Translations under genes and position numbers: made by a program
The notes under the pieces: generated by a model
Databases searched by the model: none
What the model was told of the DNA's origin: nothing
Seen by the model: the letters and a program-made list of their open reading frames with translations, nothing else
Shown here: piece by piece, positions 5,395 through 56,257 of the stretch
Layout: every line of letters starts with the position of its first letter
Numbering within the stretch: position 1 is the stretch's first letter
NCBI GenBank assembly: GCA_050184115.1
Contig: JBFXAQ010000014.1
Location: 30,925-94,924, forward strand
Length of the DNA stretch: 64,000 nt
Direction: 5' to 3'
DNA from: Gammaproteobacteria bacterium
Lineage (GTDB): Bacteria; Pseudomonadota; Gammaproteobacteria; Ga0077536

Positions 5395-5397
5395 ACC

Positions 5398-7219: not shown

Positions 7220-7314
7220 GCGACCGGCGCCGTGCGCCAGGGCACGGCGGCAAGTACACTGTCGCCCTGCGCCGCGCTGCCGTTGCGCGGCACCACGACA
7301 TATCGAACGAGACC

Positions 7315-30692: not shown

Positions 30693-30726
30693 TGTTCTGT
30701 TTCCTCCCCCCAGATCGTACGTCGGC

Positions 30727-31053
30727 TCAGGCGCGCAAGGTTTCACCCGTCAGCGCCTTCCAGCGCTGGCGGAAGACGTACCACTCGGCCTCGGTCTGGC
30801 TGGTGAAACGCCGGTTGAGCAGCTTGACCGGTTCGCCGGGTTTGCCGGTGGTCCGGGCGAGCTGCCATTCACGGTTGGGCTTGATCACCACCAGGCAGTA
30901 CTTGTCTGCCATGGGCGCACCGCGCATGCGCGTGAGCAGGCGCTGCAGGTCCGGACTGTGGTGTCCGATCGGGTTGTGCTTGAATTCCTCGATGAGGCGG
31001 CGGTCGTCCGCCTGCGGCCGGTAGTTCTCGTGCGCTTCTTTGAGTTCTGCCAT
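30727..31053 (-). CDS. dmfA1: N,N-dimethylformamidase small (alpha) subunit
   Basis: 108-aa MAELKEAHENYRPQADDRRLIEEFKHNP... ORF 34 nt upstream of the large subunit, with GGGGAGGA RBS. Trimmed from ORF 30727..31239. Confidence 0.6.
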   Translation of the reverse strand: MAELKEAHENYRPQADDRRLIEEFKHNPIGHHSPDLQRLLTRMRGAPMADKYCLVVIKPNREWQLARTTGKPGEPVKLLNRRFTSQTEAEWYVFRQRWKALTGETLRA

Positions 31054-31150
31054 GGCTTGTCCTCCCCGCGTGCCAGTGGATTGAACGCGAGCGGGGAGTA
31101 TAGCGCCGAACCCGGCGTGCCCCGTGACGGCGATGTCCCGCCCCGGCGCG

Positions 31151-32014
31151 TCAGAACGGGGTGCCGTGACGGGCCGCGTAGTCGCCGTAGGCCGGCGTGA
31201 GCCGCGCCAGGGCCGGGCGGTCGGCGCCGCCGATGGCACGGTCGTCGAGGCTGGCGATACCGATCAGCCCGGCGCCGCTGCCGCACAGGAAGGCTTCGTC
31301 CGCGCCGACGAGATCATAGGCGGTGAGCGGGCGTTCGCAGGCGCGGCCGCCGCCGGCCTGCCAGCATTCGAGCACGGTGGCCCGCGTGATACCGGGCAAC
31401 GCACCTTCGCTGGTCGGCGGCGTGACCAGGGTGTCGTCGATGACGGCGAAGACGTTCGCGCCGCTGGCCTCGGCGATGCGCGCCTCGGCGTTCAGCAGCA
31501 GGGCTTCGTCGTAGCCGCGCAGTCGCGCTTCGCGCTTGGCCAGCACGTTGTTGAGGTAGTTGAGACTCTTGACCTGGGGATCGAGCATGTCCGCCCGTGG
31601 CCGGCGCTGGCTGGCGGTGGCGAGACGCAGGCCACGCGCCCTCACCTCGTCGGGAAACATGCGGATATCGGCGACGATGCAGTAGAGCTCGGGCTCGTGG
31701 CAATCGGTCGGGTCGAGCGTGAGCGCGCCGACGCCGCGGGTGACGAGCAGGCGGACGTAGGCTTCGGCCGCGCCGTGGGCGCGCGCCGTTGCGCACACCA
31801 CCGCGGCCAACGCGGACCCGGCGAGCGGCAGGTCGAGGCCGATGGCGCGTGCGGAGCGCGCGAGGCGCGCGAGGTGGGCGTCGAGGCGGAACACCCGTCC
31901 GCCGGTGATGCGGATGCCCTCGAACACGCCGTCGCCGTAGAGCAGGCCGTGATCGAGCAGGGGCACGCGGCAGTCGCGCGCATCGCCGATGTGTCCACGA
32001 TGCCAGACCTTCAT
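31151..32014 (-). CDS. Class IV aminotransferase (branched-chain amino acid / D-amino-acid aminotransferase family)
   Basis: MKVWHRGHI...LLDHGLLYGDGVFEGIR...EAFLCGSGAGLIGIASLD is the IlvE/DAAT fold. RBS GGAAGGAGAG. Start overlaps the IclR stop (ATGA). Confidence 0.75.
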   Translation of the reverse strand: MKVWHRGHIGDARDCRVPLLDHGLLYGDGVFEGIRITGGRVFRLDAHLARLARSARAIGLDLPLAGSALAAVVCATARAHGAAEAYVRLLVTRGVGALTLDPTDCHEPELYCIVADIRMFPDEVRARGLRLATASQRRPRADMLDPQVKSLNYLNNVLAKREARLRGYDEALLLNAEARIAEASGANVFAVIDDTLVTPPTSEGALPGITRATVLECWQAGGGRACERPLTAYDLVGADEAFLCGSGAGLIGIASLDDRAIGGADRPALARLTPAYGDYAARHGTPF

Positions 32015-32742
32015 GTCGTCTCTCCTTCCAGTCGTAGAGCGATGCCTTCGGCGGCGTGGCGCACGCGGCGCACCGCGGCTGCTGTGCCGAGGGCGTGAAA
32101 ACGGGCGGCGACCATGGCCAGCGCGACGCAGCCTTCGAGCCGGCCCGCGACCTGCACCGGCGCCGCCGCGACGCACAGGCCGGCCTGCCATTCCTCGTCG
32201 TTGACGGCCCAGCCGCGGTTGCGCGCCTCGTCGACGGCCGCGTTGAGCGCGGCCCGGCTGCGCAGTGTCGCCGGGGTGTAACGCGGCAAGGTGTCGAGTT
32301 CGACAGTGGCTGGCGCAAGAGCGAGGTAGAGCTTGCCGACCGCCGTCGCATGCACCGGCACGTGCGAACCGAGCCGCGGCGCGGCCCGCAGGAAGCCGTC
32401 GCCCTCGGCCTTGGCCAGCACCACCAGGCGTGCGCCACGGGCGACGACGAGGAAGAAGGTCTCGCCGAGTTCGTGGGCGGCGGCTTCGAGCACCGGCTGC
32501 GCGGCATGGGCGACGGGTTCACGTCGCGCGCAGGCCAGCCCCAGGGTCATCAGCCCGAGGCCGGCCTGGTAGCGCCCCTCGGCGTCGCGCTCGACCAGGC
32601 CGCGCGCAACCAACGGCGCGAGGATGCGATGGGCGCTCGAACGCGGCATGTCGAGGCTGCGCGCGATGTCGGCCAGGCGCAGCGCCTGCCCGGCCTGACC
32701 GAGCAGGAAGAGGGCGTCGAGGGCCTTGTCGATGGTTGTCAT
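32011..32742 (-). CDS. IclR-family transcriptional regulator
   Basis: N-terminal wHTH (LRLADIARSLDMPRSSAHRILAPLVARGLVERD) plus IclR effector domain. Translationally coupled to the aminotransferase. Confidence 0.85.
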   Translation of the reverse strand: MTTIDKALDALFLLGQAGQALRLADIARSLDMPRSSAHRILAPLVARGLVERDAEGRYQAGLGLMTLGLACARREPVAHAAQPVLEAAAHELGETFFLVVARGARLVVLAKAEGDGFLRAAPRLGSHVPVHATAVGKLYLALAPATVELDTLPRYTPATLRSRAALNAAVDEARNRGWAVNDEEWQAGLCVAAAPVQVAGRLEGCVALAMVAARFHALGTAAAVRRVRHAAEGIALRLEGETT

Positions 32743-32754
32743 GATGTTCCGTAT

Positions 32755-32786
32755 TTCAGAACAGTGTTCTTGAATTCAGAACAAGG
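32755..32786. promoter_or_regulatory. Candidate IclR operator: TTCAGAACA direct repeat containing a 13-bp palindrome AGAACAgTGTTCT
   Basis: ttcagaacagtgttcttgaattcagaacaagg lies in the divergent iclR / methyltransferase intergenic region. Local GC is low. Confidence 0.4.
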
Positions 32787-32967
32787 ATTCGCATCTTCGC
32801 TTGCCGTCGTCAAGCCTGCCGCGATTCCTCCAAGAAATCCGGGGACGAGGCGAGCGCGGAGCCGTCCCCGCCGCCGCCCCTGTCGTCCACGGCCTGCACC
32901 GGCCGTTCCGCCATGTGGTACAAGGCGGCATCCGTTACACGTCGACAGTCGAGGAGGGGATCGAAGC

Positions 32968-34023
32968 ATGGACAAGGCGCGCATGAAGGCGATGGCCGAC
33001 CGCGTGTTCCGCGATGTCGCCGGGGGCATGGCGGCGGGACTGGCCTGGCTCGGCTGCGAGACCGGGCTGTTCCGCGTGCTGGACGAGCGTGGGCCGCTCG
33101 GCTTTGCGGCGCTGGCGGAGGCCAGCGGACTGGTGCCGCGTTACGTCGAGGAGTGGGCGCGCGGCATGGTCGCCGCCGGTTACCTCGACTACGACCCGGC
33201 CGCACAGACCGTCAGCCTGCCGGCGGAGCACGCCTGGTTGCTGGCTTCCGACGGCACCGATCACTACATGGGCGGCCTGTTCGGCATGGTGCCGCCCTTG
33301 ATGGCCGTGGCGCCGCGTATCCGCGCGGCGTTCCGCGAAGGTGGCGGCGTGCCCTTCGCCGATTTCCCGCCGGAGTGCCGTCACGCCATCGATCTCATGA
33401 ACCGCGGCAACTACGAACACCGCCTGGCGAGTTATTGGCTGCAGCAGCTGCCGGACACGGTGGCACGGCTCGAAGCGGGCGGTCGCGTGCTCGATCTCGG
33501 GTGCGGCAACGGCCAGGTGGTGGTGGCGCTGGCGCGGGCGTTCCCGAACAGCACCATCGTCGGCGTCGATCCGGACGCGGCCTCCATCGCCGCGGCACGC
33601 GCGGCTGTCGCCGCGGCCGGCGTCGCCGCCAATAGCGAACTCGTGCAGGCGACGCTCGACGCCGTGCCGCTAGAACCCGCCTTCGATCTCGTCACCGCCT
33701 GCGATTGCCTGCACGACCTGCCCGACCCGGTCGGTGTGCTGCGCGACGTGCGCGCCCACCTTGCCCCGCATGGTGTGCTGCTCGCCATCGAGCCACGCGT
33801 GGCGGACCGCTTGGAGGACAACGTCAATCCGCTGGCCGCGATGTTCTACGGCTTCAGCGTCTTTCACTGCACGACCCAGTCGATGGCGCACGACGGTGCA
33901 GCGCTCGGTGCCTGCATGGGGCCCACGCGCACCCGGGCGTTGTTCCGCGAAGCCGGCTTCTCGCGTGTCGAGGAGGTTGACGTCAGGAGCCCGGTGAATC
34001 TCTTCTACGCGGTCTACGCCTGA
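32968..34023 (+). CDS. Class I SAM-dependent methyltransferase (O-methyltransferase-like with N-terminal dimerisation/wHTH domain)
   Basis: LDLGCGNGQVVVALARAFP (motif I GxGxG) and acidic motif II. RBS GAGGAGGGGA before ATG 32968. Trimmed from ORF 32056..34023. Confidence 0.75.
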   Translation: MDKARMKAMADRVFRDVAGGMAAGLAWLGCETGLFRVLDERGPLGFAALAEASGLVPRYVEEWARGMVAAGYLDYDPAAQTVSLPAEHAWLLASDGTDHYMGGLFGMVPPLMAVAPRIRAAFREGGGVPFADFPPECRHAIDLMNRGNYEHRLASYWLQQLPDTVARLEAGGRVLDLGCGNGQVVVALARAFPNSTIVGVDPDAASIAAARAAVAAAGVAANSELVQATLDAVPLEPAFDLVTACDCLHDLPDPVGVLRDVRAHLAPHGVLLAIEPRVADRLEDNVNPLAAMFYGFSVFHCTTQSMAHDGAALGACMGPTRTRALFREAGFSRVEEVDVRSPVNLFYAVYA

Positions 34024-34047
34024 AACACGCACGGGGTCGCGAACGGA

Positions 34048-34854
34048 TCATTTCTTCAGCTGGTCTTCGCGGCTCTTCATCGGGAAGTGCATGGCGAAGG
34101 GGCGCGGCCAGGCGGAGGGCAGGTCGACCAGCGTGCCGCCCGTCGACACCGTCTCGGCGAGTTCGAGGGCGGCAGCGAGCACGGCGCGCTGACCGTCGGC
34201 GTCGTTGGGTGCGCCGAGCGCGTTGCCCATGGGGTGGTTGACGAAAGCCGTGCGCGGCGCGCGCACGTTCCACGACAGGTCGCGACCGGTCGAGAGCAGG
34301 GTGGTGACGATGCCGTGCTCCTCGACCACGCGCGCGACGAGGCCGGCGGTCTGGTGATCGAGCGGGCAGGCCGGGATCAGCACCAGCACGTCGACACCGT
34401 CGGCGGCGAGCTCGCGCGCGAAGGCCGGCGCGGCGATCTCGCACACCTCGTTGCGGATGTAGATGCGGCCCATGAAGCCACTCCACAGCCGTGATGCGAC
34501 ACTGCCGATGAACCCGCTCGCGGCCAGCTCGTGCAGGCGCGTGAGCGGGAACTGGCAGTTGATGTCGCGGCTGGCGTCGCGGTGATCGTAGTAGTTGTCG
34601 TGGATCTGGAAACCGTCGGCGGGAGTGTCGGCCGGGATGGCATCGAGGCGCAGGTCGTTGCGCGCATTGGCGTCGAAGGGCGCCGCAGTGGCGAGCGAGA
34701 TGCCGCCGGTGGTGAGCAGCGACACGCGGCATTCCGCCAGGGGCTTCGCCAGGCGCGCAAGCGGGGCGCTGTCGTTGACGGTCCAGTCATAGGGCGGAAA
34801 GCCGAGTGACTGGTAGCGTGCATTGAGCTCGTCGACGTAGGCGAGTGGTTGCAT
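34048..34854 (-). CDS. Conserved hypothetical protein (possibly GrdB/PrdB-reductase-related fold)
   Basis: 268 aa from MQPLAYVDELNARYQ. No firm family. The GrdB/PrdB suggestion is a weak recollection. Confidence 0.35.
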   Translation of the reverse strand: MQPLAYVDELNARYQSLGFPPYDWTVNDSAPLARLAKPLAECRVSLLTTGGISLATAAPFDANARNDLRLDAIPADTPADGFQIHDNYYDHRDASRDINCQFPLTRLHELAASGFIGSVASRLWSGFMGRIYIRNEVCEIAAPAFARELAADGVDVLVLIPACPLDHQTAGLVARVVEEHGIVTTLLSTGRDLSWNVRAPRTAFVNHPMGNALGAPNDADGQRAVLAAALELAETVSTGGTLVDLPSAWPRPFAMHFPMKSREDQLKK

Positions 34855-35039
34855 GACGATCTTCCCGTGAACGACCACGCGCGGACGCACGTGCGGCCTG
34901 CGCAGGTTAATCAATTCACCGTGGACCTGTCATGGTGCGGCGGATCGCGTGGGTGAGCGCGAATGGCGCTCCGGGATAGCGGACCAGCGGCGCGGACCGT
35001 GCGTCGAGGGCGCCGCAGCGCCCTCGACGATGGCTCACG

Positions 35040-35177
35040 TCACTTCTTGACGCATTGCGCCTTGGTGGTGTCCCACTTCTGATCGGACTTGCAGTGGTGC
35101 GTGTCGGCGGCCATGGACGCGAAACTGGCCAGCAAGAGCGCGGAAGCGAGCAGGGTCGAGAGTGTCTTGGTCTTCAT
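35040..35177 (-). CDS. Unannotated small secreted peptide (45 aa: signal peptide plus 22-aa Cys/His/Lys-rich mature peptide)
   Basis: Not in the ORF track. GAGGAG RBS, ATG, MKTKTLSTLLASALLLASFASMA|ADTHHCKSDQKWDTTKAQCVKK, then stop. Sits downstream of trkH on the same strand. Confidence 0.45.
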   Translation of the reverse strand: MKTKTLSTLLASALLLASFASMAADTHHCKSDQKWDTTKAQCVKK

Positions 35178-35337
35178 CGTCGTACTCCTCGTGGAGAGCA
35201 GTGTGTTGGATCAATGGACCGAGTCAGGAACAGTGCGCACCGTGGTGATCGGTGGACGTGAGACCGGTGGCACGGAATAAGTTCGACACCTGCGACGCCG
35301 GATGAAGCGCTTCGGAACCGTCCTACGCGACGCCCGC

Positions 35338-36780
35338 TCAACTGCGCCAGAAAGCCGGATGCAACAGCACCAGCAGGGTGAAGAACTCGAGTCGCCCGAG
35401 CAGCATGGCGAAGCTGTAGAGCACCTTCAGCCACGGTGCGACGGTGGCGAAGCTCAGGCTCGTGGTACCGAGCCCGGGACCGAGGTTGTTCAGCGTCGTG
35501 GCGGTGGCGCCGAAGGCGGACACCTGGTCCAGGCCGCCGATCATGCCGAAAGTCATCAGGAGCACGAAGACGAGCACGTAGAGGGCGAAGAAGCCCCACA
35601 CCGCATCGGTGACCTTGTCGGGAACGGTGCGCTCGTCGTGCTTGAGCGGGCGCACCAGGTTGGGATGGACGAGCCGTTCGATCTGCAGCGCACAGTTACG
35701 CGCGAGGACGACGAAGCGAATGACCTTGATGCCGCCGGCGGTCGATCCCGCGCAACCGCCGATGCAGCTGACGTAGATGAGGAGTGTCGGCAGCACGTTC
35801 GGCCACTGGGTGAAATCCTCGTCCATGAAGCCGGTGCTGGTGATCACCGTGACGACGGCAAAGGCCGCCGCGCGCCAGGCTTCGAAGCCGGCGAGATGGT
35901 CGTAACCGCGGACCAGGGCGGCGGTCAGGGCGACGGTGAGGATGACGACGACGAGAAAGGCGAGGGTCTCGCCGTGGCGGCGGTAGGGCGCAATGGAGCG
36001 TTGGTGTAGCGCCATGTAGTGCAACGTGAACGGAATCGAGCCGAGCAGCATGAAGATGATGGCGATGCTCTCGATGGCATCGCTGTGGAAGTAGGCGAAG
36101 CTGGCGTCGTGGGTCGAGAAGCCGCCGGTGGAGAGCGTCGACATCGCGTGGCAGACGGCATCGAAGGGCGACATGCCCGCGGCCAGGTAGGCCAGCGCGC
36201 AGACCAGGGTGAGGCCGGCATAGATGCCCCACAGGTGCTGCGCGGTCTTGCCGATGCGCGGCGTCAGCTTGTCGTCCTTCATCGGGCCGCTGGCCTCGGC
36301 GCGCAGGAGCTGCATGCCGCCGACGCCGATCATGGGCAGGATGGCGACGGCCGAGACGATCATGCCGATGCCACCGAGCCACTGCAGCTGGCTGCGGTAA
36401 TAGAGTATGGAGATCGGCATGCGATCGAGTTCCGCCAGCACGGTCGCGCCAGTGGTGGTGAAGCCGGAGACCGCCTCGAACAACGCGTCCTCGAGGGCGA
36501 CGTCGAGGAGGGCGTAGAACGGCAGCGCGCTCAACAGCGACAGCAGCACCCAGAACAGGGCGACGACGACGAAGCCGTCGCGCGCGCGCAGACGTTGGAT
36601 GGCACGGCGCTCGGGCCACCACAGGGCATAGCCCGCCGCTGCCGCGGTGGCGGCGAAGCCGGCCCAGGTGGCGCTGCGCGTCTCTTGGTCGCTGAAGGAG
36701 ATCAGCAACACCGGCAGCAGCGAGGCGGCGAACATCAGCAGCAGCAGCCCGGCCAGTTGTTGCAGTTGAGGACGTCCCAT
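35338..36780 (-). CDS. trkH: TrkH/KtrB-family potassium uptake protein
   Basis: Polytopic membrane protein with repeated selectivity-filter-like TTGF/STGG motifs (SGFTTTGATV, MSTLSTGGFS, TSTGFM, TTLNNLGPG). Start MGRPQLQQ with GGAGGAACG RBS. Confidence 0.8.
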   Translation of the reverse strand: MGRPQLQQLAGLLLLMFAASLLPVLLISFSDQETRSATWAGFAATAAAAGYALWWPERRAIQRLRARDGFVVVALFWVLLSLLSALPFYALLDVALEDALFEAVSGFTTTGATVLAELDRMPISILYYRSQLQWLGGIGMIVSAVAILPMIGVGGMQLLRAEASGPMKDDKLTPRIGKTAQHLWGIYAGLTLVCALAYLAAGMSPFDAVCHAMSTLSTGGFSTHDASFAYFHSDAIESIAIIFMLLGSIPFTLHYMALHQRSIAPYRRHGETLAFLVVVILTVALTAALVRGYDHLAGFEAWRAAAFAVVTVITSTGFMDEDFTQWPNVLPTLLIYVSCIGGCAGSTAGGIKVIRFVVLARNCALQIERLVHPNLVRPLKHDERTVPDKVTDAVWGFFALYVLVFVLLMTFGMIGGLDQVSAFGATATTLNNLGPGLGTTSLSFATVAPWLKVLYSFAMLLGRLEFFTLLVLLHPAFWRS

Positions 36781-37074
36781 GGCGTTCCTCCAGTTTGACC
36801 GGGACGCAGTATCGGTGCGCGCCGCGGCGTTCACACGTAAAGATCGCGTAAGGCTTTTATGGAATTTTTATGTGCGCCGGGGCTAGGCTTGCGCTGCAAT
36901 GCCTAGCCATGAACCTCATACGGATGCTCGCCGACAGCCTCATCCGCGCGCCCCGCAGCGTCGGTATGGGCCACCTGTCGGTGTCCTGCGCCAACGGCGT
37001 GCCCGCGGATACGCGTGTGGGCGGGCGCGACGGCGCAGTCCGCCTCACCGCCGGCTGCGCCCGATTGCCGCCGC

Positions 37075-38493
37075 ATGCTGAGCGAACGTTTCCCGTGGGG
37101 CATCGAGCGCGCGCGCCGGCCGTGGCGGCTGGTCGCCCTCTGTCTCGTCGTCGCCATCGCACTCGCCTACCTCATCGAAGGCTGGCTGCCGCACGCCAAT
37201 CTGTCGTTGATCTTCCTCGTCGCCGTTCTGGCGGTGGCGGGCAACACCGGCTTCGCGCCTGCCGTCGGCACCGCGGTGCTGGCCTTCGTCGCCTACAACT
37301 TCCTCTTCACCGCTCCGGCCCACACCCTGCGGGTCCACAGCACCGACGAGCTGGCCACGCTCGGCTTCTTCCTCATCGCCGGCCTGCTCGTCGCTGCGCT
37401 CGGCGCGCGCATGCGCCGCTACGTCACGGTGGCGGCTGAACACGCCGCGCGGGCCGAGGATCTCGGCGCGCTGAGTCGCCGTCTCGGCGCGGTGGCCGAT
37501 GCCGATGCGGTCGCGACGGCCCTGGTCGAGGGTATTGCCATGGTCACCGGGCACACCGCGCAGGTGCTGTACGGCGAGCGTTCGCCGGCTGCCGTGGCGG
37601 CGGGCTGGAGCGAGCTCGAGCTGGCGACGGAGGCCGAGCGCTTCGGTCACGTGCGCGTTGATTCGAGCGACGCGGCCGTCGTCGACACCGTACGCGGCCT
37701 GTGCGCGCAGGCGGCGGTGGTGCTCGAGCGCATCCACCTCGTCGCGGCGCTCGACGAAGCGCGCATCGAGACCGAGACCGAACGTCTGCGCGGCGCGCTG
37801 TTGTCCTCGGTGTCGCACGATCTGCGCACGCCGCTGGCCTCGATCATCGGCGCCACCACGAGCTTGCGCGAACTCGGCCCCGCGCTCAGCGCAACCGCGC
37901 GCGCGGACCTCCTCGACATGGTGGTGAGCGAGGCCGAACGTCTCAACCGCTACATCCAGAACCTGCTCGACATGACCCGTCTCGGCCAGGGTGCGTTGAG
38001 TCTCAAGCGCGATTGGACCGACGTCGACGACATCGTCGCCAGTGCGCTTGCCCGCCTGGGCGGCCTGCTGCGCGGCGTCGATGTCGCGCTCGACCTCGCG
38101 CCCGGTCTGCCGCTGCTCAGGATCCACGGCGCGCTGGTCGAGCAGGCCCTGGTCAACGTGCTGGAGAACGCCGCCAGGCATTCGCCGCCGCGCGGCACGG
38201 TGACGCTGGCCGCGCACGTGGTCGACGATGAGCTGCGCATCGAGGTCAGCGACGGCGGTCCGGGCATACCGCCGGCCGAACGGGAACGCGTGTTCGAGTC
38301 GTTCTACACGGCCCAGCGTGGCGACGGCGGTGCCGAGGGTACCGGCCTCGGGCTCGCCATCGCGCGCGGTTTCATCGGCGCCCATGGCGGCAGCATCGTG
38401 GCGCTCGATGGTCCGGGCGGGGTCGGCAGCACTTTCCGTATCAGCCTGCCGCTGCCCGAAGCCGCGCCGGATCTCCGTGACGGTGCCGAGTGA
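37075..38493 (+). CDS. Sensor histidine kinase, short KdpD-like (TM + GAF-like + HisKA + HATPase; lacks N-terminal KdpD/Usp domains)
   Basis: HisKA H-box LSSVSHDLRTPLASI. N/G1/G2 boxes (NVLENAARHS, DGGPGI, GTGLGL). N-terminal 3-4 TM helices resemble the KdpD membrane anchor. Confidence 0.7.
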   Translation: MLSERFPWGIERARRPWRLVALCLVVAIALAYLIEGWLPHANLSLIFLVAVLAVAGNTGFAPAVGTAVLAFVAYNFLFTAPAHTLRVHSTDELATLGFFLIAGLLVAALGARMRRYVTVAAEHAARAEDLGALSRRLGAVADADAVATALVEGIAMVTGHTAQVLYGERSPAAVAAGWSELELATEAERFGHVRVDSSDAAVVDTVRGLCAQAAVVLERIHLVAALDEARIETETERLRGALLSSVSHDLRTPLASIIGATTSLRELGPALSATARADLLDMVVSEAERLNRYIQNLLDMTRLGQGALSLKRDWTDVDDIVASALARLGGLLRGVDVALDLAPGLPLLRIHGALVEQALVNVLENAARHSPPRGTVTLAAHVVDDELRIEVSDGGPGIPPAERERVFESFYTAQRGDGGAEGTGLGLAIARGFIGAHGGSIVALDGPGGVGSTFRISLPLPEAAPDLRDGAE

Positions 38494-38494
38494 G

Positions 38495-39181
38495 ATGAGC
38501 GCGCGCATCCTGGTCGTGGACGACGAGGCGCAGATCCGCAAGTTCCTGCGCATCAGTCTCGAGGCCGCCGGCTATGCCATCGACGAGGCGCGTACCGGGA
38601 CCGAGGCCCTGGAATCGTGCAATGCCGCGCCGCCCGATCTCGTGGTACTCGATCTCGGTCTGCCGGACCTCGACGGCGTCGAGGTCATCGCACGGCTGCG
38701 CGAGTGGTCGCGGGTACCGATCCTGGTGCTCTCGGTGCGCTCGCTGGAGGCACAGAAGGTCACCGCGCTCGACGTTGGCGCCAACGACTACCTGACCAAG
38801 CCGTTCGGCATCTCGGAACTGATGGCGCGCTGCCGCGTGCTGCTACGCGACCAACCCGCCGGCGAGGACGAGCCGGTCATCCGTAGTGGCGCCCTGACCA
38901 TCGACCGGCGCAGCCGCCGCGTGAGTCTCGGCAACGAGGTCGTGCACCTGTCGCCGAAGGAATACGCCTTGCTCAACCTGCTCGCCGAACACCGCGGCCG
39001 CATCGTCACCCACCAGCAGCTGCTGCGCGCTATCTGGGGCGAGCGCCACGTCGACGACACCCACTACCTGCGCGTGCTCGTCGGCCACCTGCGCCAGAAG
39101 CTCGACGACGACCCGGCGCATCCTCGCTACGTCGTCACCGAGCAGGGCGTCGGCTATCGCTTCGGCGAGGACGGCGGCTGA
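38495..39181 (+). CDS. OmpR-family response regulator (KdpE-like)
   Basis: REC domain (ILVVDDE...DLVVLDLGLPDLDG) plus winged-helix trans_reg_C (YLRVLVGHLRQKLDDDP...VGYRF). ATG 1 nt after the HK stop. Confidence 0.85.
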   Translation: MSARILVVDDEAQIRKFLRISLEAAGYAIDEARTGTEALESCNAAPPDLVVLDLGLPDLDGVEVIARLREWSRVPILVLSVRSLEAQKVTALDVGANDYLTKPFGISELMARCRVLLRDQPAGEDEPVIRSGALTIDRRSRRVSLGNEVVHLSPKEYALLNLLAEHRGRIVTHQQLLRAIWGERHVDDTHYLRVLVGHLRQKLDDDPAHPRYVVTEQGVGYRFGEDGG

Positions 39182-39205
39182 TCCGCCGCCCCTTACCAGC
39201 GGCCC

Positions 39206-39281
39206 GCAATGGGGACAGTATACTTTTGCCCATGGCTTCGCCGCGGCCGCGCGTGTGCGAAAAGTATACTGTCCCCATTGC
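39206..39281. repeat. REPIN (inverted REP doublet) GCAATGGGGACAGTATACTTTTGC ... GCGAAAAGTATACTGTCCCCATTGC
   Basis: Two ~24-nt inverted copies separated by ~27 nt, immediately upstream of the RAYT gene. A third REP copy lies at 39966-39990 overlapping the RAYT stop. Confidence 0.75.
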
Positions 39282-39321
39282 TACGCGTTCGTAGCGTCGA
39301 TGAAGCACAGGAGGTGCTGCC

Positions 39322-39969
39322 ATGGCCAGGATGGCCCGACTCGTCGTTCCCGGCGTTCCGCATCACGTCACGCAGCGCGGCGGTCGCCGCCAGCAGGTCT
39401 TCTTCGGCGACGAGGACTACGCACATTACTTGCGCCTCATGGCGCGCTTCTCGGTCAAGGCCGGCACCGCCGTCGTGGCGTATTGCCTGATGCCTAACCA
39501 CGTTCACCTGATCATGGTCCCCGGCGACGAGGAAGGCCTGCGTGCGGCGTTGGGCGAGGCGCATCGGCGCTACGCACGCGACATCAACCAGCGTGAGGGT
39601 TGGCGGGGCCACCTGTGGCAGGAACGCTTCTATTCCACACCCATGGACGAGTGGCACCTCGCCCATGCGGTGGGTTACGTCGAGAGCAACCCGATGCGCG
39701 GCGGCTTGTGCAGTGATGCCTGCGCGTGGCCGTGGTCGAGCGCGCGGGCACGTGCCGATGGTAGCCAGGATGTCCTGCTGGATCTGCTGCCCGGACACGT
39801 TGCACAGTCCTGGCGCGAGCTGCGTGCAGCGCCTACCGACGCTGCTGTCGACACGCGCATCGCGCGCTGTACGCGCACCGGCCGTCCGCTAGGCGATGCG
39901 GCCTTCGTTGTGCGGCTGGAACAACTGAGCGGGCGGCGCCTGCGTCCGTGCCGGCGTCGCCCGGGCTGA
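39322..39969 (+). CDS. REP-associated tyrosine transposase (RAYT; IS200-like Y1 HuH transposase)
   Basis: HuH motif PNHVHLIM. Typical RAYT N-terminus (PHHVTQRG...). Conserved Y in the C-terminal half. Confidence 0.75.
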   Translation: MARMARLVVPGVPHHVTQRGGRRQQVFFGDEDYAHYLRLMARFSVKAGTAVVAYCLMPNHVHLIMVPGDEEGLRAALGEAHRRYARDINQREGWRGHLWQERFYSTPMDEWHLAHAVGYVESNPMRGGLCSDACAWPWSSARARADGSQDVLLDLLPGHVAQSWRELRAAPTDAAVDTRIARCTRTGRPLGDAAFVVRLEQLSGRRLRPCRRRPG

Positions 39970-39986
39970 AAAGTATACTGTCCCCG

Positions 39987-41393
39987 TTATAGGGCCCCCG
40001 CCGCGCGCAGCGCTTCCTGGCGCGCCTTCGCCATGTTGTAGGTACGCGCCATCATGATGCGCTGGGCCTTGAGCCCGCCGCCGGCCTGCAGCGCGGTCAC
40101 CAGGTACCAGCCGCCGAGCGCGTCGGCGGTCATGTCGCGGATGAGGTTGAACACCCGCATGCGCTGCTCGACGTCGGTGCCGGGCTTGGCCGCCATGTAC
40201 TTGCGCAGGTAGGCGCCCGCTTCCGGGTGACGGAGGTCCGCCTCCTCCGGCAGCGTGATCACGAGCCCGCCGGCGACGTCGTGCAGGTGTTTCACCATGC
40301 TGTGGAAGTTCGAGGCGTAGTAGTACTTCGTCACGTTGATGCCGAGGATGTTGGGATGCAGCATGCCGTCGGCGGTCGTCTCGTAGTTGGCGCAGGCATG
40401 GTCGATGCCCATGCGGATCATCTCGGCGTAGCAGATGAGTTCCGAGATGGCGTCCTGCACGTGCGGGTCGCGCTCCTTGCCCTGGGCCTCGGTGACGAGG
40501 TCGGCCAGGCCCACCATCAGTTCCGCTTCGTACGCCGCCATCACCAGCCCGAGCGTGCGTTCCCACAGGCCGAGCGAGGCGGCGAAGGCGCCGGCCATCT
40601 GCCACTCGCCGGCGAGGAAGACGCGGTCCCAGGGCACGAAGACGTCGTCGAAGACGACGAAGCCCTCGGGCATGGAGTGATGCGCGCTGGCCGGGTAGTC
40701 GAAGGCGTTGAGTTCGGCCGGGGCGAAACTGCGCGCGATGATCTTGACCCCCGGCGTGTTGACCGGGATGGAGAAGGCGACGGCGTAGTCGGCCTCGTCC
40801 TCGCGCATCGACTTGGTCGGCATGACGACGAGTTCGTGCACCAGCGGTGCGCCGGTGATGTGCAGCTTGGCGCCGCGTACCACGATGCCGTCGGCACGGC
40901 GCTCGACGATGCGCACGTAGAGGTCGGGATCGAGCTGCTCGTGGGCCTTCTTCGAGCGGTCGCCCTTGGCGTCGGTGATGACCTCGGCGGCGCGCAGGTC
41001 GTTGTCGCGCGCGTAGCGGTACATGTTCTCGATGTTCTGCGCGAACTGCGGGTTGATGGCGGCGAGGCGGTCCTTGATCTGCAGCAGCGCCATGTAGACC
41101 CCGGTCACGCCGCCGACGATCGACATCTGCCGCCCGAGCGCGAGGCGCTTGTGCAACTCCTCGATGGTGCGCGGCACCTGGTAGACGCGGTGGGCGAGCG
41201 TGCCGTCCTCGGTCTCGTAGGTGATGAGGTCGCGGATCTCGGGGTCGTCGTAGGCGTAGTCGCTACTGGCGACTTCGAGCGGCACCTGGAAGCGTGGGTG
41301 CGAGGTGACGTCCGTGATCTTCTCGCCGCCCCAGTAGATGACGCGTCCGTCATTGAGCGAGGCACGGTATTCGGCAGCGGTCTTGAGACCCAT
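39987..41393 (-). CDS. 4-hydroxyphenylacetate 3-monooxygenase oxygenase-component (HpaB) family flavin-dependent monooxygenase
   Basis: 468 aa. HpaB/4-HB-CoA-dehydratase family. Few Cys, which argues against the Fe-S AbfD-like members. RBS AGGAGAAC before MGLKTAAEYRASL. Confidence 0.65.
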   Translation of the reverse strand: MGLKTAAEYRASLNDGRVIYWGGEKITDVTSHPRFQVPLEVASSDYAYDDPEIRDLITYETEDGTLAHRVYQVPRTIEELHKRLALGRQMSIVGGVTGVYMALLQIKDRLAAINPQFAQNIENMYRYARDNDLRAAEVITDAKGDRSKKAHEQLDPDLYVRIVERRADGIVVRGAKLHITGAPLVHELVVMPTKSMREDEADYAVAFSIPVNTPGVKIIARSFAPAELNAFDYPASAHHSMPEGFVVFDDVFVPWDRVFLAGEWQMAGAFAASLGLWERTLGLVMAAYEAELMVGLADLVTEAQGKERDPHVQDAISELICYAEMIRMGIDHACANYETTADGMLHPNILGINVTKYYYASNFHSMVKHLHDVAGGLVITLPEEADLRHPEAGAYLRKYMAAKPGTDVEQRMRVFNLIRDMTADALGGWYLVTALQAGGGLKAQRIMMARTYNMAKARQEALRAAGAL

Positions 41394-41698
41394 GGGCAAG
41401 TTCTCCTGGTTGTCGGCGGGGAGCGCGGTCGGTGGCGCGAAGCAACGCAGTCGCCGGTGGTACGCCAGCACGTGCGCCAACCAGGGTCGCGTTTACGCCG
41501 GGTCACGGCTTTCCCACTTCGGAGCTCCCCGGAACCGAAGCGCGCAACGGCGAAAGCGGCGGCCCATCACAAAGTGAGCGCAGCGCCGGCGAAGTGACGA
41601 TATTTTACTTCCGGGTGGTACGCAAAAGGCTTAGGGTCGCCGGGCTGTCGGCCGCTGCGGGCGGTGTGCAGCGCCCCTCAAGGTCCCTGGAGTCCGAG

Positions 41699-42526
41699 AT
41701 GTCACGCCCCGTCCTGCATTCCGCGCTCGCCGCCCTCGCGCTCGTTCTCGGCGTGGTCGACGCCAGCCCGGCCATGGTCGTCACCGTCGGTGGCTACCAC
41801 GACTGGACGCTGGTCGAGGATCCGCCGCACCCGGGCATGTCGGCGAACGTCGACAGTGCGCTCCAGGTCAGCCTGGGCGCGAACGGTGCGGTCCCGGCCG
41901 GGGTCGACATCGGCTACCAGAGCGTCGACGGGGCGACGGTCGGAGCGTCCACCGGGGGGTGGTATTTCTCGCCGTCGAGTGATTTCAGTCTGGCTGTCGA
42001 CTATGCGGTGTCGGGCAGCAACCCGCTCGGCATCACCGCCATCGGTTTCGGCTTCGGTGAGGACGGCGACGGCGCCAATTCCGGCGGCGCGGTGCTGACC
42101 TTCAACAATGGTTCCGCGCTGGGATTCGGCGGTGCCGCGCGTACCAACGACGTCTCCACGCTCGCGCCGATCCTCGGCGCGGCACTCGCCAGCAGCGGCC
42201 GGCTGTTCGTCGGCTACGAAGCGGCCAGCGGCAACGTTTCCTACGGTTACAGCGCGACCCCGGGCAGTTTCGCGCCGGACGTCAGCGGAACGTTCAGCGG
42301 CCTGCAGAACGGCTGGACGGACAGCGACCTCCTGGTCTCGCTCTTCCTGCGCAGCGACGCGCTGCCGCCCTTCTTCGGCCCGCTGCAAGCGGGCAGCTTC
42401 GGCGTGACCTTCGGCCCGGTGGAAGTCCTTGCCGGGACACCGGCCGCGGTGCCGCTACCGGCAGCGGCCTGGCTGCTGTTCCCGGTACTGGCCGGCCTCG
42501 CACGGCGGCGCCGGCGGGCGGCGTGA
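41699..42526 (+). CDS. PEP-CTERM (exosortase-sorted) secreted protein
   Basis: N-terminal signal peptide MSRPVLHSALAALALVLGVVDA. C-terminus VPLPAAAWLLFPVLAGLARRRRRAA is a PEP-CTERM-like tripartite tail. Confidence 0.65.
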   Translation: MSRPVLHSALAALALVLGVVDASPAMVVTVGGYHDWTLVEDPPHPGMSANVDSALQVSLGANGAVPAGVDIGYQSVDGATVGASTGGWYFSPSSDFSLAVDYAVSGSNPLGITAIGFGFGEDGDGANSGGAVLTFNNGSALGFGGAARTNDVSTLAPILGAALASSGRLFVGYEAASGNVSYGYSATPGSFAPDVSGTFSGLQNGWTDSDLLVSLFLRSDALPPFFGPLQAGSFGVTFGPVEVLAGTPAAVPLPAAAWLLFPVLAGLARRRRRAA

Positions 42527-42535
42527 AGCGCCGGC

Positions 42536-44191
42536 TCAGCGCGCGGCGCTGAAGCCCCGCGCCCGTTCGCGCAGCACGAACTTCTGGATCTTGCCGCTCG
42601 GCGTGCGCGGGAAGTCGTCGACCAGTTCGAGCCGCTCCGGCAGGTATTGTCGCGTCAGCTTCGCCTGCAGCAGGTAGTCGACGAGACCGTCGAAGTCGAG
42701 CTGGCCACCGGCCTTGAGGCTGACGAAAGCGCAGGCGCGCTCGCCCAGGCGCGCATCCGGCATCGCCACCACCGCGGCGTCCTGCACGGCCGGGTGGCGA
42801 TAGAGCAATTCCTCCACTTCGACCACCGGGATGTTCTCGCCGCCCCGGATGATGATGTCCTTGGAGCGGCCCGTGATGCGGATGTAGCCGTCGTCGTCCA
42901 TGCGCGCGTTGTCGCCGGTCTCGAACCAGCCGTCCCCGTCGACCTCGTAGGCCTCGGGACGCTTGAGGTAGCCGACGAAGAGGGTCGCGGACTGCGCCTG
43001 CAAGCGGCCCTCGGTCCCGTTCGGCACCACCGCGCCGTGCTCGTCGACGATGCGCACGGCATGACCGGGCAGGGCGCGGCCGTCGGTCTCGAAGACCTTC
43101 TCCGCCGGGTCGCCGGGATAGGTCGCGGTCGAGATGCCCATCTCGGTCATGCCCCAGGCGCTCATCATGTACATGTTGGGCAGCGCGCGTGCGGCATCGT
43201 GCACCAGCACGCGCGGGATCGGCGCGCCGGCGCAGAGGAACAGGCGCAGGCTCGCCAATGCCTCGCCGTGGCTGGCCGCGGCCTGCACCAGGTCGCTGAC
43301 GAACGGCGTTGCACCCAGGGTCAGCGTGCAGCCCTCCTCACCGATGATGCGTGCCGCGGCGAGCGCGTCCCACTGGTCGAGCAGTACGAGCTTGGTGTGG
43401 TTGCGGATGGAGAACACCACGCCGTACATGAAGCCGGTCTGGTGCGCGACCGGCGAGCCCATGAAAACGGCATCGCGCTCGGTGAACGAGAACAGCTCGG
43501 TGGCGAGGAGCGCCTTGCAGTAGAGCGTGTTGGCCGTATGCATCACGCCCTTGGGTTGGCCGGTGGTGCCCGAGGTGTACATGATCTCGGTGACGTCGTC
43601 CGGTGCCGGTCGGCGTTCGGCGAGCAGTACCTCCACATCGGGCGCTTGTTCGTGCGGAATGTCGAGTAGGACGCGTTCGAAGGAGGTCGCCGGATCATTA
43701 CCGCCGATCACGAGCACATGGCGGAGTAGCGGCAGCTTCGACCGCAGGCCTGCCATCATCCTTGGGTAGTCGAAGCCGCGGAACTCGCGCGGCACGATCA
43801 TCACCTTCGACTCGGCGTGGCCGAGCATGAATTCGAGTTCGCGTTCACGGAAGATCGGCATCAGCGGGTTGATCACCGCGCCGATGCGCACGCAGGCGGC
43901 GTGGATGGCGGCGTATTGCCACCAACTCGGCAGCTGCACGGCGACGACGTCGCCCTTGGCGACACCGAGCGCGGCGAGACCGGCGGCGAGACGCAGCGAA
44001 TGATCGCGTAGCTGGCTGTAGGTGAGCTCGTTGCGCCGCCCGCTCATCGAGTTGTGGTCGACGATGGCGATACGCGTCGGGTCGGCCACCGCAACCTCGT
44101 CGAGATCGTCGATCAGCAGGCGGTCCGGCCACAGCCCGGCGGCGCGCATGCGCGCCGCACGTGCGGCCGGCAGGATCGGATCGGTCGCCAT
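42536..44191 (-). CDS. AMP-dependent acyl-CoA synthetase/ligase
   Basis: AMP-binding motifs YTSGTTGQPKGV and TGD...GRSKDII, C-terminal ...PRTPSGKIQKF. Confidence 0.85.
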   Translation of the reverse strand: MATDPILPAARAARMRAAGLWPDRLLIDDLDEVAVADPTRIAIVDHNSMSGRRNELTYSQLRDHSLRLAAGLAALGVAKGDVVAVQLPSWWQYAAIHAACVRIGAVINPLMPIFRERELEFMLGHAESKVMIVPREFRGFDYPRMMAGLRSKLPLLRHVLVIGGNDPATSFERVLLDIPHEQAPDVEVLLAERRPAPDDVTEIMYTSGTTGQPKGVMHTANTLYCKALLATELFSFTERDAVFMGSPVAHQTGFMYGVVFSIRNHTKLVLLDQWDALAAARIIGEEGCTLTLGATPFVSDLVQAAASHGEALASLRLFLCAGAPIPRVLVHDAARALPNMYMMSAWGMTEMGISTATYPGDPAEKVFETDGRALPGHAVRIVDEHGAVVPNGTEGRLQAQSATLFVGYLKRPEAYEVDGDGWFETGDNARMDDDGYIRITGRSKDIIIRGGENIPVVEVEELLYRHPAVQDAAVVAMPDARLGERACAFVSLKAGGQLDFDGLVDYLLQAKLTRQYLPERLELVDDFPRTPSGKIQKFVLRERARGFSAAR

Positions 44192-44354
44192 CGCCAGACT
44201 CTCCCCTCGTTGGCGGCGCCACCTCGCGCGGCGCGTCGGGGGGGAGTATAAGCCGGGGCTGCCGTGGAACGAGGTCGTGGCCGGCCGCGGGGCGTCGAGC
44301 GTGCCGGGCCGCGCGGGTGACGTTCAGCGCGGTGGCGCCGCGCCACCGATGGCG

Positions 44355-44633
44355 TCAGTGCATGCGCATACCTCCTTCGGCCGCCGAGCGTTCGTGGCCG
44401 CCGGCCGGCAGGTGGGCAAGCACGTGCTGCCAGGTCATCAGCGCGCGGTGATAGACGTTGTGACCGCAGGGCGCACGGAAGCGATCAGGATGCTCGGCGA
44501 GCAGGCCGAGCAGGCGCACCACCACCCCGGCGAGCTGTGGCGTGGGGTTCAGCACGAACTCGCTCATGGCGCGGATGGAACTCGCGTGCAGGGCCGTGAC
44601 GGGGACGGGGGTATCGGCATCTTCGGAAGGCAT
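44355..44633 (-). CDS. Small hypothetical protein (92 aa)
   Basis: ORF between the flavoprotein gene and the acyl-CoA synthetase gene on the same strand. No recognisable family. Confidence 0.25.
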   Translation of the reverse strand: MPSEDADTPVPVTALHASSIRAMSEFVLNPTPQLAGVVVRLLGLLAEHPDRFRAPCGHNVYHRALMTWQHVLAHLPAGGHERSAAEGGMRMH

Positions 44634-44719
44634 CGGCAGGTGCTCCTCGTGAATCGAGGTTGCACTTTAATGAGAATGATTCTCAATATCAAGAAATTCG
44701 ACCGCCGCCGTGTCTCCGC

Positions 44720-55068: not shown

Positions 55069-55920
55069 ATGCAGCACTACCAGACCACGCCGTTCGTCGG
55101 CGATTTCGTCTTTCTCGAGGGGCCGCGCTGGCACGACGGCCGCCTGTGGGTGTCCGACATCTGGGGGCACACCGTCTACGCCATCGGTCCCGACGGCACG
55201 CGCGAGGCCGTCGTCGAGGTGCCGGAACGCCCGTCGGGCCTAGGCTTCCTGCCCGACGGCACGCCGCTCATCGTCTCGATGGTCGACCGCCGCCTGTACC
55301 GCCTCGAAGGCGGGCAGCTGGTGCTGCATGCGGATCTCGCGGGCAGCATTCCGGCTGAGATCAACGACATGGTGGTCGACGCCCGCGGCCGCGCCTACGT
55401 CGGTAACATGGGGTACGACCTCTTCAGCGGCGCTGAGCCGAAGACGGCCGAGATCACCCTGGTCGAGCCGGACGGCAGCTTCCGTCACGTCGCGAGCGGC
55501 CTCGATTTCCCCAACGGCATGGTGATCACGGACGCCGGCCGGACCCTGGTGGTGGCGGAATCCTTCGGTCACCGCGTATCGGCCTTCGATATTGCCGCCG
55601 ACGGTGGCCTGTCCAACCGCCGTGTGCTGGCCGAATTGCCGGACCTCATCCCCGACGGCATCTGCCTCGACGTCGCCGGCAACGTGTGGGTGGCCGGTGC
55701 CATGGGCGGGCTCTTCGTCCAGCTCGACCCGGGCGGCAAGGTCATCGGCCAGGTCGACGTACGTCCGCGCGCGGCAATCGCCTGCCAGCTCGGCGGCGCC
55801 GACGGCCGCAACCTCTACTGCCTCGTCTACGACGGCGGCATCGAAGAGTTGTCGCGCGGCCAGCCGGGGGCGTCGATCGAGATCGCGCGGGTGGAGCATC
55901 CGGCGGCGGGGTCGCCCTGA
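55069..55920 (+). CDS. SMP-30/gluconolactonase/LRE-like (SGL) beta-propeller protein
   Basis: FLEGPRW...DIWGHTVYAIGPDG...PNGMVITDAGRTLVVAES...PDGICLD motifs. Confidence 0.75.
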   Translation: MQHYQTTPFVGDFVFLEGPRWHDGRLWVSDIWGHTVYAIGPDGTREAVVEVPERPSGLGFLPDGTPLIVSMVDRRLYRLEGGQLVLHADLAGSIPAEINDMVVDARGRAYVGNMGYDLFSGAEPKTAEITLVEPDGSFRHVASGLDFPNGMVITDAGRTLVVAESFGHRVSAFDIAADGGLSNRRVLAELPDLIPDGICLDVAGNVWVAGAMGGLFVQLDPGGKVIGQVDVRPRAAIACQLGGADGRNLYCLVYDGGIEELSRGQPGASIEIARVEHPAAGSP

Positions 55921-56188
55921 CAAAGGCAACTGCGAGGCGACAGCGGAGCCCATGTGCAGCGTTGCGCGCGCCGCTCCGTTCCCCATTCCCATTGGTTCAC
56001 CCCGGTGCTCGCCGCGTGCGACTCGCCTCCGGGATTCCTGGTCGCACCTCACGGCGGGATCTAAACCGGGGACAGACCACAATTTACCTTCCCCGGCTTT
56101 ACCGCGGCCCGCTAAACCTGATCGGTCGACCGGGAGGGGCACTAAAAGCAAGTGCGTCCCCATTTCGCGGGCCGCTCGACGCGGCGCA

Positions 56189-56257
56189 CTGGGGACAGTT
56201 TACTTTTGCACGGCGCGTCGCCGCGGGCCGGGCGTCGGTGAAAAGTAAACTGTCCCC
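56189..56257. repeat. REPIN (inverted REP doublet), variant GGGGACAGTTTACTTTTGC ... GTGAAAAGTAAACTGTCCCC
   Basis: Same REP family as at 39206 (TTTAC instead of TATAC), in inverted orientation ~27 nt apart. Intergenic between SGL and the aminotransferase. Confidence 0.65.

Follow-up and report, generated by a model that had tools for sequence, protein, structure and literature searches.

What kind of element is a gene for a small HuH tyrosine enzyme that sits between short inverted repeats, when the same repeats recur as a gene-less pair 16 kb away? This question is raised by positions 39206-39988 of a 64,000-nt stretch of gammaproteobacterial DNA, to which we refer as the window; our counts of the repeat and of the gene for this genome refer to these 64 kb. 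The first-pass annotation had called the locus a canonical RAYT-REPIN arrangement, that is, a REP-associated tyrosine transposase (RAYT) gene with paired copies (REPINs) of repetitive extragenic palindromic (REP) sequences, and had expected it to yield a genome-specific REP consensus. We found that the feature is real and that its superfamily had been named roughly correctly, but that neither the RAYT-REPIN label nor the genome-specific consensus can be maintained. In our reading, which we regard as probable, the locus is a TIRtron: a domesticated or semi-domesticated gene of the Y1 HuH type that lies within its cognate terminal inverted repeats (TIRs), the gene-less doublets being non-autonomous derivatives that would be recognised as hairpins when single-stranded.

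The gene, of the type named TIRYT, occupies positions 39322-39969 on the plus strand, is the only copy within the window and encodes 215 amino acids. An AGGAGG ribosome-binding site, read from the sequence, lies at 39309-39314 on the same strand, 7 nt before the ATG, and a scan of positions 39100-40100 found neither a sigma-70-like promoter nor a terminator. As had been proposed, the open reading frame (ORF) encodes an IS200-like HuH protein: Pfam Y1_Tnp (PF01797) matches residues 15-123 with 41.7 bits against a cut-off of 23, and both the HuH motif and the tyrosine are present. The histidines of the motif PNHVHLI are H60 (codon at 39499-39501) and H62 (39505-39507); the codon of the catalytic Tyr119 lies at 39676-39678, and Asn123 stands four residues on. 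Among solved structures the best match by sequence is E. coli TnpA-REP (4ER8, E 2e-4), in whose alignment PNHVHLI stands opposite PEHMHCI and GYVESNP opposite DYIYINP. Tyr119 and Asn123 also align with ISDra2 TnpA, where Tyr119 falls on the tyrosine of KYIESQ. Because of these alignments with TnpA-REP and ISDra2, the ORF product is assigned as a Y1 HuH enzyme whose predicted catalytic set is H60, H62, Y119 and N123. All four residues are invariant in an alignment of 25 homologues, and the lack of a catalytic tyrosine that had been named as a possible refutation was not found.

An AlphaFold model based on the 25-homologue alignment (pLDDT 85.5, pTM 0.86) has 4ER8 as its best match in the PDB, with E 1.8e-8 and a target-normalised TM-score of 0.72. 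The next fold matches were the ISDra2 and IS608 transposases, and 4ER8, 2XM3 and 2VJV all received a probability of 1.00. The best match in NCBIfam is REP_Tyr_transpos (NF047646, an equivalog), at E 3e-18, and its 66.1 bits lie below the curated cut-off of 80; transpos_IS200 scored 15.2 bits against a cut-off of 55. The protein carries a C-terminal extension of about 75 residues (approximately 140-215), which the 165-residue TnpA-REP lacks. This extension has a conserved motif, RTGRPLG...F..LE; its invariant residues are G187-R188-P189-x-G191 and E200, and the model places three predicted helices in it, at 158-169, 174-186 and 193-203. The C-terminal 75 residues gave no Pfam match even at E values up to 10, and a low-confidence model of this domain alone (pLDDT 68.6) gave no PDB match below E 2.7.

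The repeats were recovered where the first-pass annotation had placed them: a doublet ahead of the gene, a single copy overlapping its stop and a variant doublet near 56.2 kb. The exact core GGGGACAGTWTACTTTT occurs five times in the window, with 0 expected, and 100 dinucleotide-preserving shuffles gave no match even when up to 3 mismatches were allowed. Unit A, the 5' TIR, spans 39206-39227 on the plus strand, with the core GGGGACAGTATACTTTT at 39211-39227 and the 22-nt arm GCAATGGGGACAGTATACTTTT. The inverted unit B lies on the minus strand at 39260-39281 (core 39260-39276) and pairs with unit A into a 76-nt hairpin-capable doublet, 39206-39281, in which the two 22-nt arms are 100% complementary across a 32-nt spacer. 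Unit C, the 3' TIR, lies on the minus strand at 39969-39988 (core 39969-39985), and reaches at its inner end into the TGA stop of the gene (39967-39969), whose last base is the first base of the unit. Units A and C are inverted across the gene and 95% complementary over 20 nt, and the gene is indeed flanked by its own repeats. The gene-less doublet, a T variant of the same family, occupies 56191-56257, with units at 56191-56207 (plus) and 56241-56257 (minus), and lies between a convergent pair of genes, an SGL/gluconolactonase-like gene (55069-55920, plus) and an aminotransferase gene (56277-57566, minus).

The pairs at 39206-39281 and 56191-56257 are the only substantial spaced inverted repeats in the 64 kb. 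Folded as single-stranded DNA, they reach -32 kcal/mol (z -6.9) and -34.2 kcal/mol (z -6.7), respectively; the three lone units that were folded did no better than shuffles (z 0.02, 1.19 and 1.26). Palindromy is thus a property of the unit pairs only, and within a lone unit just the central AGTATACT is self-complementary. Both doublets do have the make-up of a REPIN: each folds into a hairpin from two inverted units and the spacer between them, and this composite recurs as one piece. Neither a GTAG nor a CGTC tag or head stands consistently beside the units of the window or those compared elsewhere. The bases adjoining GGGG vary (gcaat, ataac, gcact and ctgaa in the window, many others elsewhere), and GTAG occurs near units only 4 nt from unit B and from its orthologue in a related genome (locus L118, described below). 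The sequence GGGGACAG is present in every unit of the window and matches the TIR motif GGGGWSAS. All doublets of the window's lineage measure 49-50 nt from start to start and have a homologous spacer with a central GCCGCGGC, and the spacer of 39206-39281 is homologous to those of the other doublets. Because of this uniform length and shared spacer, the sequences indicate that the entity copied is the whole doublet, not the lone unit.

Three further searches in the window bear on the repeats. A unit-like match at position 7250, with 3 mismatches in a 16-position scan, was taken as a chance match. Rfam returned no family at its gathering score anywhere in the window. A reading of the doublets as intrinsic terminators was dropped because no T-runs follow them, and the scan of 39100-40100 had found no terminator.

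The protein has more than 8000 relatives of about 220 residues with 55-60% identity. To place its arrangement in the family, we compared the flanks of 80 metagenome loci whose proteins are 44-61% identical; 75 of these loci could be tested for end repeats. Their layout is stereotyped: a plus unit begins some 55 nt ahead of the ATG (the commonest start of the 5' repeat is 57-63 nt upstream), and a minus unit overlaps the stop codon. A flank inverted repeat with a score of at least 12 was present in 55 of the 75 testable loci, whereas shuffled controls reached a maximum of 11. The median match score was 17 between the two ends of one locus and 7 when ends of separate loci were paired (Mann-Whitney p 9e-26). 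The repeat sequence varies by locus (GGGGACACCATAC..., GGGGACACAATAC..., GGTGACAGTTTAC..., GGTGACACGATACGC... and others), with the ends matching within each locus, and most homologue loci carry GGGGACAC, GGGGACAG or GGTGACAG as their GGGGWSAS motif. Because of the stereotyped layout, its frequency and the matching of ends within loci, we read the family arrangement as a gene between TIRs with the core GGGGACA-NN-WTAC, and not as a gene beside small palindromes. TIRs around the gene are the layout of a class that has been named separately as TIRYT/TIRtron (PMC3733652; PMC6006769), which speaks against a canonical RAYT-REPIN.

Several side observations concern these homologues. Of 78 homologue loci, 24 (compared to 0.4% in shuffles) have a sigma-70-like promoter, TTGAY-N16-19-TANNNT, in the 60 nt ahead of the ATG, and its -35 box abuts the 5' repeat; in 18 of these 24 the distance from the end of the -10 box to the ATG is exactly 6 nt. 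This placement implies leaderless mRNAs in these homologues and makes autoregulation possible; the window gene has its AGGAGG site instead and no promoter of this type. Truncated copies of the repeat tip stand just outside 21 of 88 repeat ends (homologue loci L122-L201), for example upstream of position 1922 in L123 and at both ends in L126, L140 and L200. Two examples are AATTCCGGGG/AATTCCGG/AATTCCGGGGACAC and TAATTACGGTGAC/TAATTACGGTGACA/TAATTAC/TAATTACGGTGACAG. Elsewhere in the homologue loci, tip 8-mers occur at 0.0014 per 65-nt interval. A test for exact tandem runs as a sign of tip "stutter" was positive in 1 of 85 and proved too strict, and recurrence of the tip 8-mer was used instead. 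Such truncated copies, of which the window has none, may record abortive rounds of nicking and rejoining at the G-run. In addition, three long homologues (P0003, P0004 and P0072, 311-333 aa) have 40-70 N-terminal residues partly duplicated ahead of a complete protein; between the two stands either a repeat unit in translation or, as GTVYLTL in P0072, a short linker that does not align. These proteins look like partial gene duplications across a repeat unit.

The history of the locus can be followed in relatives. The closest one available is the gammaproteobacterial metagenome-assembled genome (MAG) JACKNG01 (loci L118/L085/L202), whose protein is 87% identical by BLASTP and 86% over its full length. 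Its L118 block is colinear with window positions 29533-44698, with a DNA identity of about 85%. The gene occupies the same site in it, flanked by genes for a KdpE-like response regulator and, in convergent orientation, an HpaB-like protein. Between the window and L118, the TIRYT gene has a dN/dS of 0.175 and a dS of 0.43; for the HpaB-like neighbour these values are 0.028 and 0.31. From this dN/dS, the shared site and a dS similar to that of the neighbour, we conclude that the gene is functional, under purifying selection, and in place since the lineages of the window and JACKNG01 split. Unit C is perfectly conserved in JACKNG01, where this 3' unit is the exact dispersed 17-mer. Upstream of the gene, JACKNG01 has two degenerate doublets, compared to the one perfect doublet of the window, and their four units are decayed (GGTGACAGTATAC..., 1-3 mismatches); these doublets form a tandem pair with a 124-nt period.

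The doublet at 56191-56257 is likewise orthologous, and almost identical, in JACKNG01 (L202). There, at 5290-5531, an intact second doublet belongs to a tandem duplication of about 129 nt, into which about 45 nt from the 3' end of the aminotransferase gene have been copied as well. Its decayed counterpart in the window is tentatively placed at 56068-56161 (GGGGACAGACCACAATTTACC ... GGGGACGCACTTGCTTTTAG on the minus strand), adjoining the intact doublet; we keep this assignment tentative, since GGGGAC...GTCCCC pairs by themselves do not exceed their chance frequency. Duplication that takes in flanking DNA seems to recur at these elements. Variation of doublet positions between strains, which had been named as a point to check, is not borne out by this relative, in which the doublets are orthologous at both comparable sites and differ only in tandem copy number. 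A more distant genome, with an aminotransferase 78% identical, has no units at the 56-kb locus, and none of the loci orthologous to JACKNG01's other doublets (L085, L053) lies inside the window.

A third genome (L205) is colinear with window positions 35957-44605, with an HpaB-like protein 90% identical, and lacks the segment 39170-39990 (821 bp), including the TIRYT gene and all units. At this site it has a 229-nt spacer, and because this spacer is unrelated in sequence to the window, the boundaries could be placed only to within a few bases. In the window, the TAA stop of the HpaB-like gene (39987-39989) lies directly at the outer tip of unit C (TAAC/GGGG on the minus strand; CTATAA/CGGGGACAG), and in JACKNG01 (L118, 10665-10668) the TAA likewise lies at the outer tip of the 3' repeat. 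In L205 (4905-4913) the HpaB-like gene extends for two more codons (…ALGG*). Both convergent genes thus have their stop codon at the edge of the element or within it. Homologues on plasmids were found in 21 of 72,556 records, all below 42% identity.

The motif itself is distributed far beyond this lineage, and a genome-specific consensus cannot be upheld: the exact 17-mer, mostly in doublets, occurs in many alpha- and gammaproteobacterial genera. A scan with one genome per species gave at least 115 stretches of 8 kb. By our own estimate chance would yield isolated matches on the order of a hundred (both strands together offer about 1.2e12 positions; the W doubles the number of matching 17-mers, and the product is divided by 4^17); unlike these, the matches listed, to which all counts in this and the next paragraph refer, are concentrated and paired. 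In the Alphaproteobacteria they fall in several Mesorhizobium species, in Allomesorhizobium, Kumtagia, Aquibium and Hoeflea, and in MAGs of the Rhizobiaceae and Phyllobacteriaceae; in the Gammaproteobacteria they fall in MAGs of the Arenicellales, Woeseiaceae, Halieaceae and Pseudomonadales and in several unclassified MAGs. Each of these taxa is represented by several stretches of 8 kb, most of which contain an inverted pair of units at a distance of 21-109 nt; one Arenicellales MAG has at least 12 stretches and several Mesorhizobium genomes have at least 7-8. With 3 mismatches allowed, 270 units were counted, 225 of them no more than 120 nt from another unit. The inverted neighbour pairs have GGGG outward in 102 of 102 cases and inward in 0, which is the polarity of the gene-flanking repeats, and the one variable base of the core agrees between the arms in 96 pairs, A and T being mixed in 2. 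In three genomes the gene-adjacent unit is the exact dispersed 17-mer: that of the window, Gammaproteobacteria bin89 (L037/L011) and Halieaceae WSDMB12 (L041/L009/L083).

The doublets of Mesorhizobium, Kumtagia and Allomesorhizobium are a side observation in their own right. They are very uniform, measuring 61-62 nt from start to start in 39 pairs. Their outer flanks recur, with TAAGTGCC at one end and GAAnCGCA or TGGCGCTG at the opposite end, and in one of the arms the terminal TTTT is replaced by TTTC. The element in these genera therefore extends beyond the 17-mer and is not symmetric. The stretches fetched from them contained no TIRYT gene. In a comparison of Mesorhizobium-like genomes, two species share one doublet behind the same stop codon, and a third lacks it. 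A literature search with the motif GGGGACAGT / ACTGTCCCC returned only unrelated eukaryotic primer matches.

The class to which we assign the locus was described by Di Nocera, De Gregorio & Rocco 2013 (PMC3733652), who named RAYT-like genes flanked by TIRs instead of REPs TIRYTs and the resulting units TIRtrons. In their 26 examples many repeats share GGGGWSAS, lie at similar distances from the gene, may overlap the gene ends and form in some organisms moderately abundant families in dimers or clusters; identity of a repeat family across genera was not reported. The window element resembles these in having a RAYT-like Y1 HuH gene between TIRs at roughly fixed distances, some overlapping gene ends, in a GGGGWSAS motif fitted by GGGGACAG, and in repeats that are sometimes dimers or clusters. 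It differs in that the 5' side of its gene carries a complete doublet, with the plus unit at -111, instead of a lone repeat at about -55, and in that its 17-mer is documented, among the matches listed, in many genera of two classes. Of these 26 TIRYTs, 20 were assigned by Quentin, Siguier, Chandler & Fichant 2018 (PMC6006769) to TnpA-Y1 subclass 2.1, which is marked by a C-terminal extension resembling a helix-turn-helix (HTH) domain (Bac_DnaA_C, HTH_23 or HTH_28) and near whose genes no REP-like sequences were found. The window protein probably belongs to this subclass, with which it shares the class 2 (TnpA-REP-like) core, a conserved C-terminal extension and a wide, patchy taxonomic distribution. 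Unlike the reported members, its gene has flanking units that form dispersed hairpin-capable doublets, and the HTH/Bac_DnaA_C likeness of the extension was not reproduced here by Pfam or by the low-confidence, domain-only fold model. RAYT Group 1 of Bertels et al. 2017 (PMC5581495), which is large and widespread and has flanking 16-mers at about 12 copies per replicon, is probably the same set as TIRYT/subclass 2.1.

For such an element we propose the following mechanism, in which enzymatic activity, hairpin recognition and the form of the substrate, the nick position and mobilisation in trans are inferred by analogy with the IS608/ISDra2 and TnpA-REP paradigms. The gene would be a chromosomal, vertically inherited TIRYT-type gene for a single-strand DNA endonuclease/ligase, with cognate repeats of 17-22 nt that have GGGG at their outer tips. 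The doublets at 39206-39281 and 56191-56257, which have the same GGGG-outward orientation as the TIRs around a short homologous spacer, would fold wherever the DNA is single-stranded, as on the lagging-strand template; the resulting hairpin of about 20 bp would have its base formed by GGGG/CCCC. The folded doublet would then serve as the hairpin substrate of the enzyme, like the REP hairpin for E. coli TnpA-REP. The strand would be nicked near the repeat tip through Tyr119, with the metal held by H60, H62 and Asn123, and its rejoining elsewhere would occasionally copy or move doublets. What this analysis shows is the anatomy, the catalytic residues and the fold, the matched ends in most homologue loci, the fixed doublet orientation, the dispersal of doublets in several gene-carrying genomes, purifying selection, and the presence or absence of the whole element between relatives.

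Several points weigh against this reading. No TIRYT member with a biochemical study was found in the literature searched, where the term itself occurs in only two papers. The lone unit has no hairpin, and because of this the recognition of the 3' unit and of the gene-flanking repeats, which lie about 740 nt from each other, would depend on pairing over a long range or on binding of double-stranded DNA. The doublets have been stable over a dS of about 0.3-0.4 at both comparable sites, with no recent transposition observed; the changes seen are without exception tandem duplications that take in flanking DNA, and replication slippage at hairpins could yield such duplications without an enzyme. 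Repeat similarity tracks protein phylogeny weakly (Mantel r 0.275, reached by 9 of 5000 permutations), and within the GGGGACAGT class protein identity is 0.53, compared to 0.52 to other classes; we claim no repeat-protein specificity code.

Other explanations share part of this evidence. The gene could be a classical RAYT (TnpA-REP, Group 2/3 type), with palindromic REP/REPIN units, a conserved 5' tetranucleotide and individual hairpins. Its protein has REP_Tyr_transpos as best NCBIfam match and 4ER8 as best PDB match by both sequence and fold, its doublets resemble REPINs, and some sources label homologues "REP-associated tyrosine transposase". With the classical RAYTs (4ER8; Nunvar 2010; Bertels & Rainey 2011; Ton-Hoang 2012) the locus shares the HuH and tyrosine chemistry, the fold, a single-copy, vertically inherited gene flanked by repeats, hairpin-capable doublets and a position at the 3' ends of convergent genes. 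Yet the match stays under its curated cut-off, the conserved extension of about 75 residues has no place in TnpA-REP, the units are non-palindromic, with lone units unfolded (z 0 to +1.3) and no consistent GTAG/CGTC tag beside them, TIR-gene-TIR is the family-wide layout, and the motif, which in classical RAYTs would be species-specific, is shared across bacterial classes; we therefore consider this assignment unlikely. The presence and absence of the whole 821-bp segment between colinear genomes, with a gene between inverted repeats, would also suit an active autonomous insertion sequence of the IS200/IS605 type that moves as repeat-gene-repeat, with the doublets as internally deleted derivatives resembling miniature inverted-repeat transposable elements. 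The shared polarity of doublets and gene-flanking repeats and the partial gene duplications next to units in some homologues fit this as well. With the TnpA proteins of IS608 and ISDra2 the window protein shares the ferredoxin-like HuH fold, the H-u-H motif and the tyrosine with a polar residue at +4 (N123 here). IS608 TnpA has Gln at the position equivalent to N123. An insertion sequence that moves is nevertheless improbable for a gene that is present in one copy in the window and syntenic with its relative, at a dS comparable to its neighbour's, that reaches 15 bits against 55 with transpos_IS200, whose lone units have no subterminal hairpins, whose homologues are very rare on plasmids, and for which no fetched locus had an identical second copy.

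The repeats might also be protein-binding operators and not mobile DNA, bound by the C-terminal helical domain or by a host factor. In this case the 5' repeat would serve autoregulation of the gene, and the doublets would act behind other genes, at their 3' ends, for example in mRNA stabilisation or transcriptional punctuation. The promoters of 24 of 78 homologue loci, with their -35 box against the 5' repeat, would be ideal for autoregulation; the 56.2-kb doublet lies between convergent genes, and the doublets are evolutionarily stable. Operators, however, leave unexplained why the HuH/Tyr catalytic centre is invariant and intact, why doublets have multiplied to many intergenic sites in several genomes and why truncated tip copies stand outside the repeats; the window gene has no such promoter, and the C-terminal domain gave no HTH match in Pfam or in the fold search. 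As a full account of the repeats it appears very unlikely, although it and the TIRtron reading are not mutually exclusive.

The upstream neighbours of the element are unconnected to the repeat finding. There, by homology to L118 and L205, lie a sensor kinase gene (DUF4118, HisKA and HATPase) and the KdpE-like response-regulator gene (window 37015-39181 and 35957-36760), with a TrkH-type transporter gene farther upstream; these genes resemble a potassium-related two-component module with a shortened KdpD-like kinase.

If the locus is a TIRtron, it adds a member to a class that is already described but almost unstudied. The identity of the repeat core across classes, the strict polarity of the doublets, the placement of promoters in homologues and the truncated tip copies outside the repeats appear to be unreported. 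For annotation, such genes should not be labelled active transposases or classical RAYTs, and the motif cannot be used as a genome-specific marker. Together with its relatives, the locus offers a testable model: a 215-aa enzyme, a predicted substrate of 17-22 nt, natural hairpin-forming doublets, an element-free colinear genome (L205) and a relative with different tandem copy numbers. The cross-class core identity, the GGGG-outward polarity and the truncated tips constrain where and how the enzyme would cut.

A broader proposal, which we put forward tentatively and would not expect to hold on present evidence, is that TIRYT genes maintain REPIN-like populations of gene-less doublets. The near-invariant core GGGGACA-NN-WTAC would have been kept across the alpha- and gammaproteobacteria while the proteins diverged to 45-60% identity and two or three specificity positions drifted, and the truncated tips would be footprints of abortive nick-and-rejoin events in the G-run that mark the cleavage site. 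This proposal runs counter to what was reported for subclass 2.1 (PMC6006769). TIRYTs are apparently the largest and most widespread RAYT-like branch, if they equal Bertels Group 1 and Quentin subclass 2.1. If the proposal is true, they would form a second ancient, widespread replicator-host system parallel to RAYT/REPIN, built on paired non-palindromic units instead of REP hairpins.

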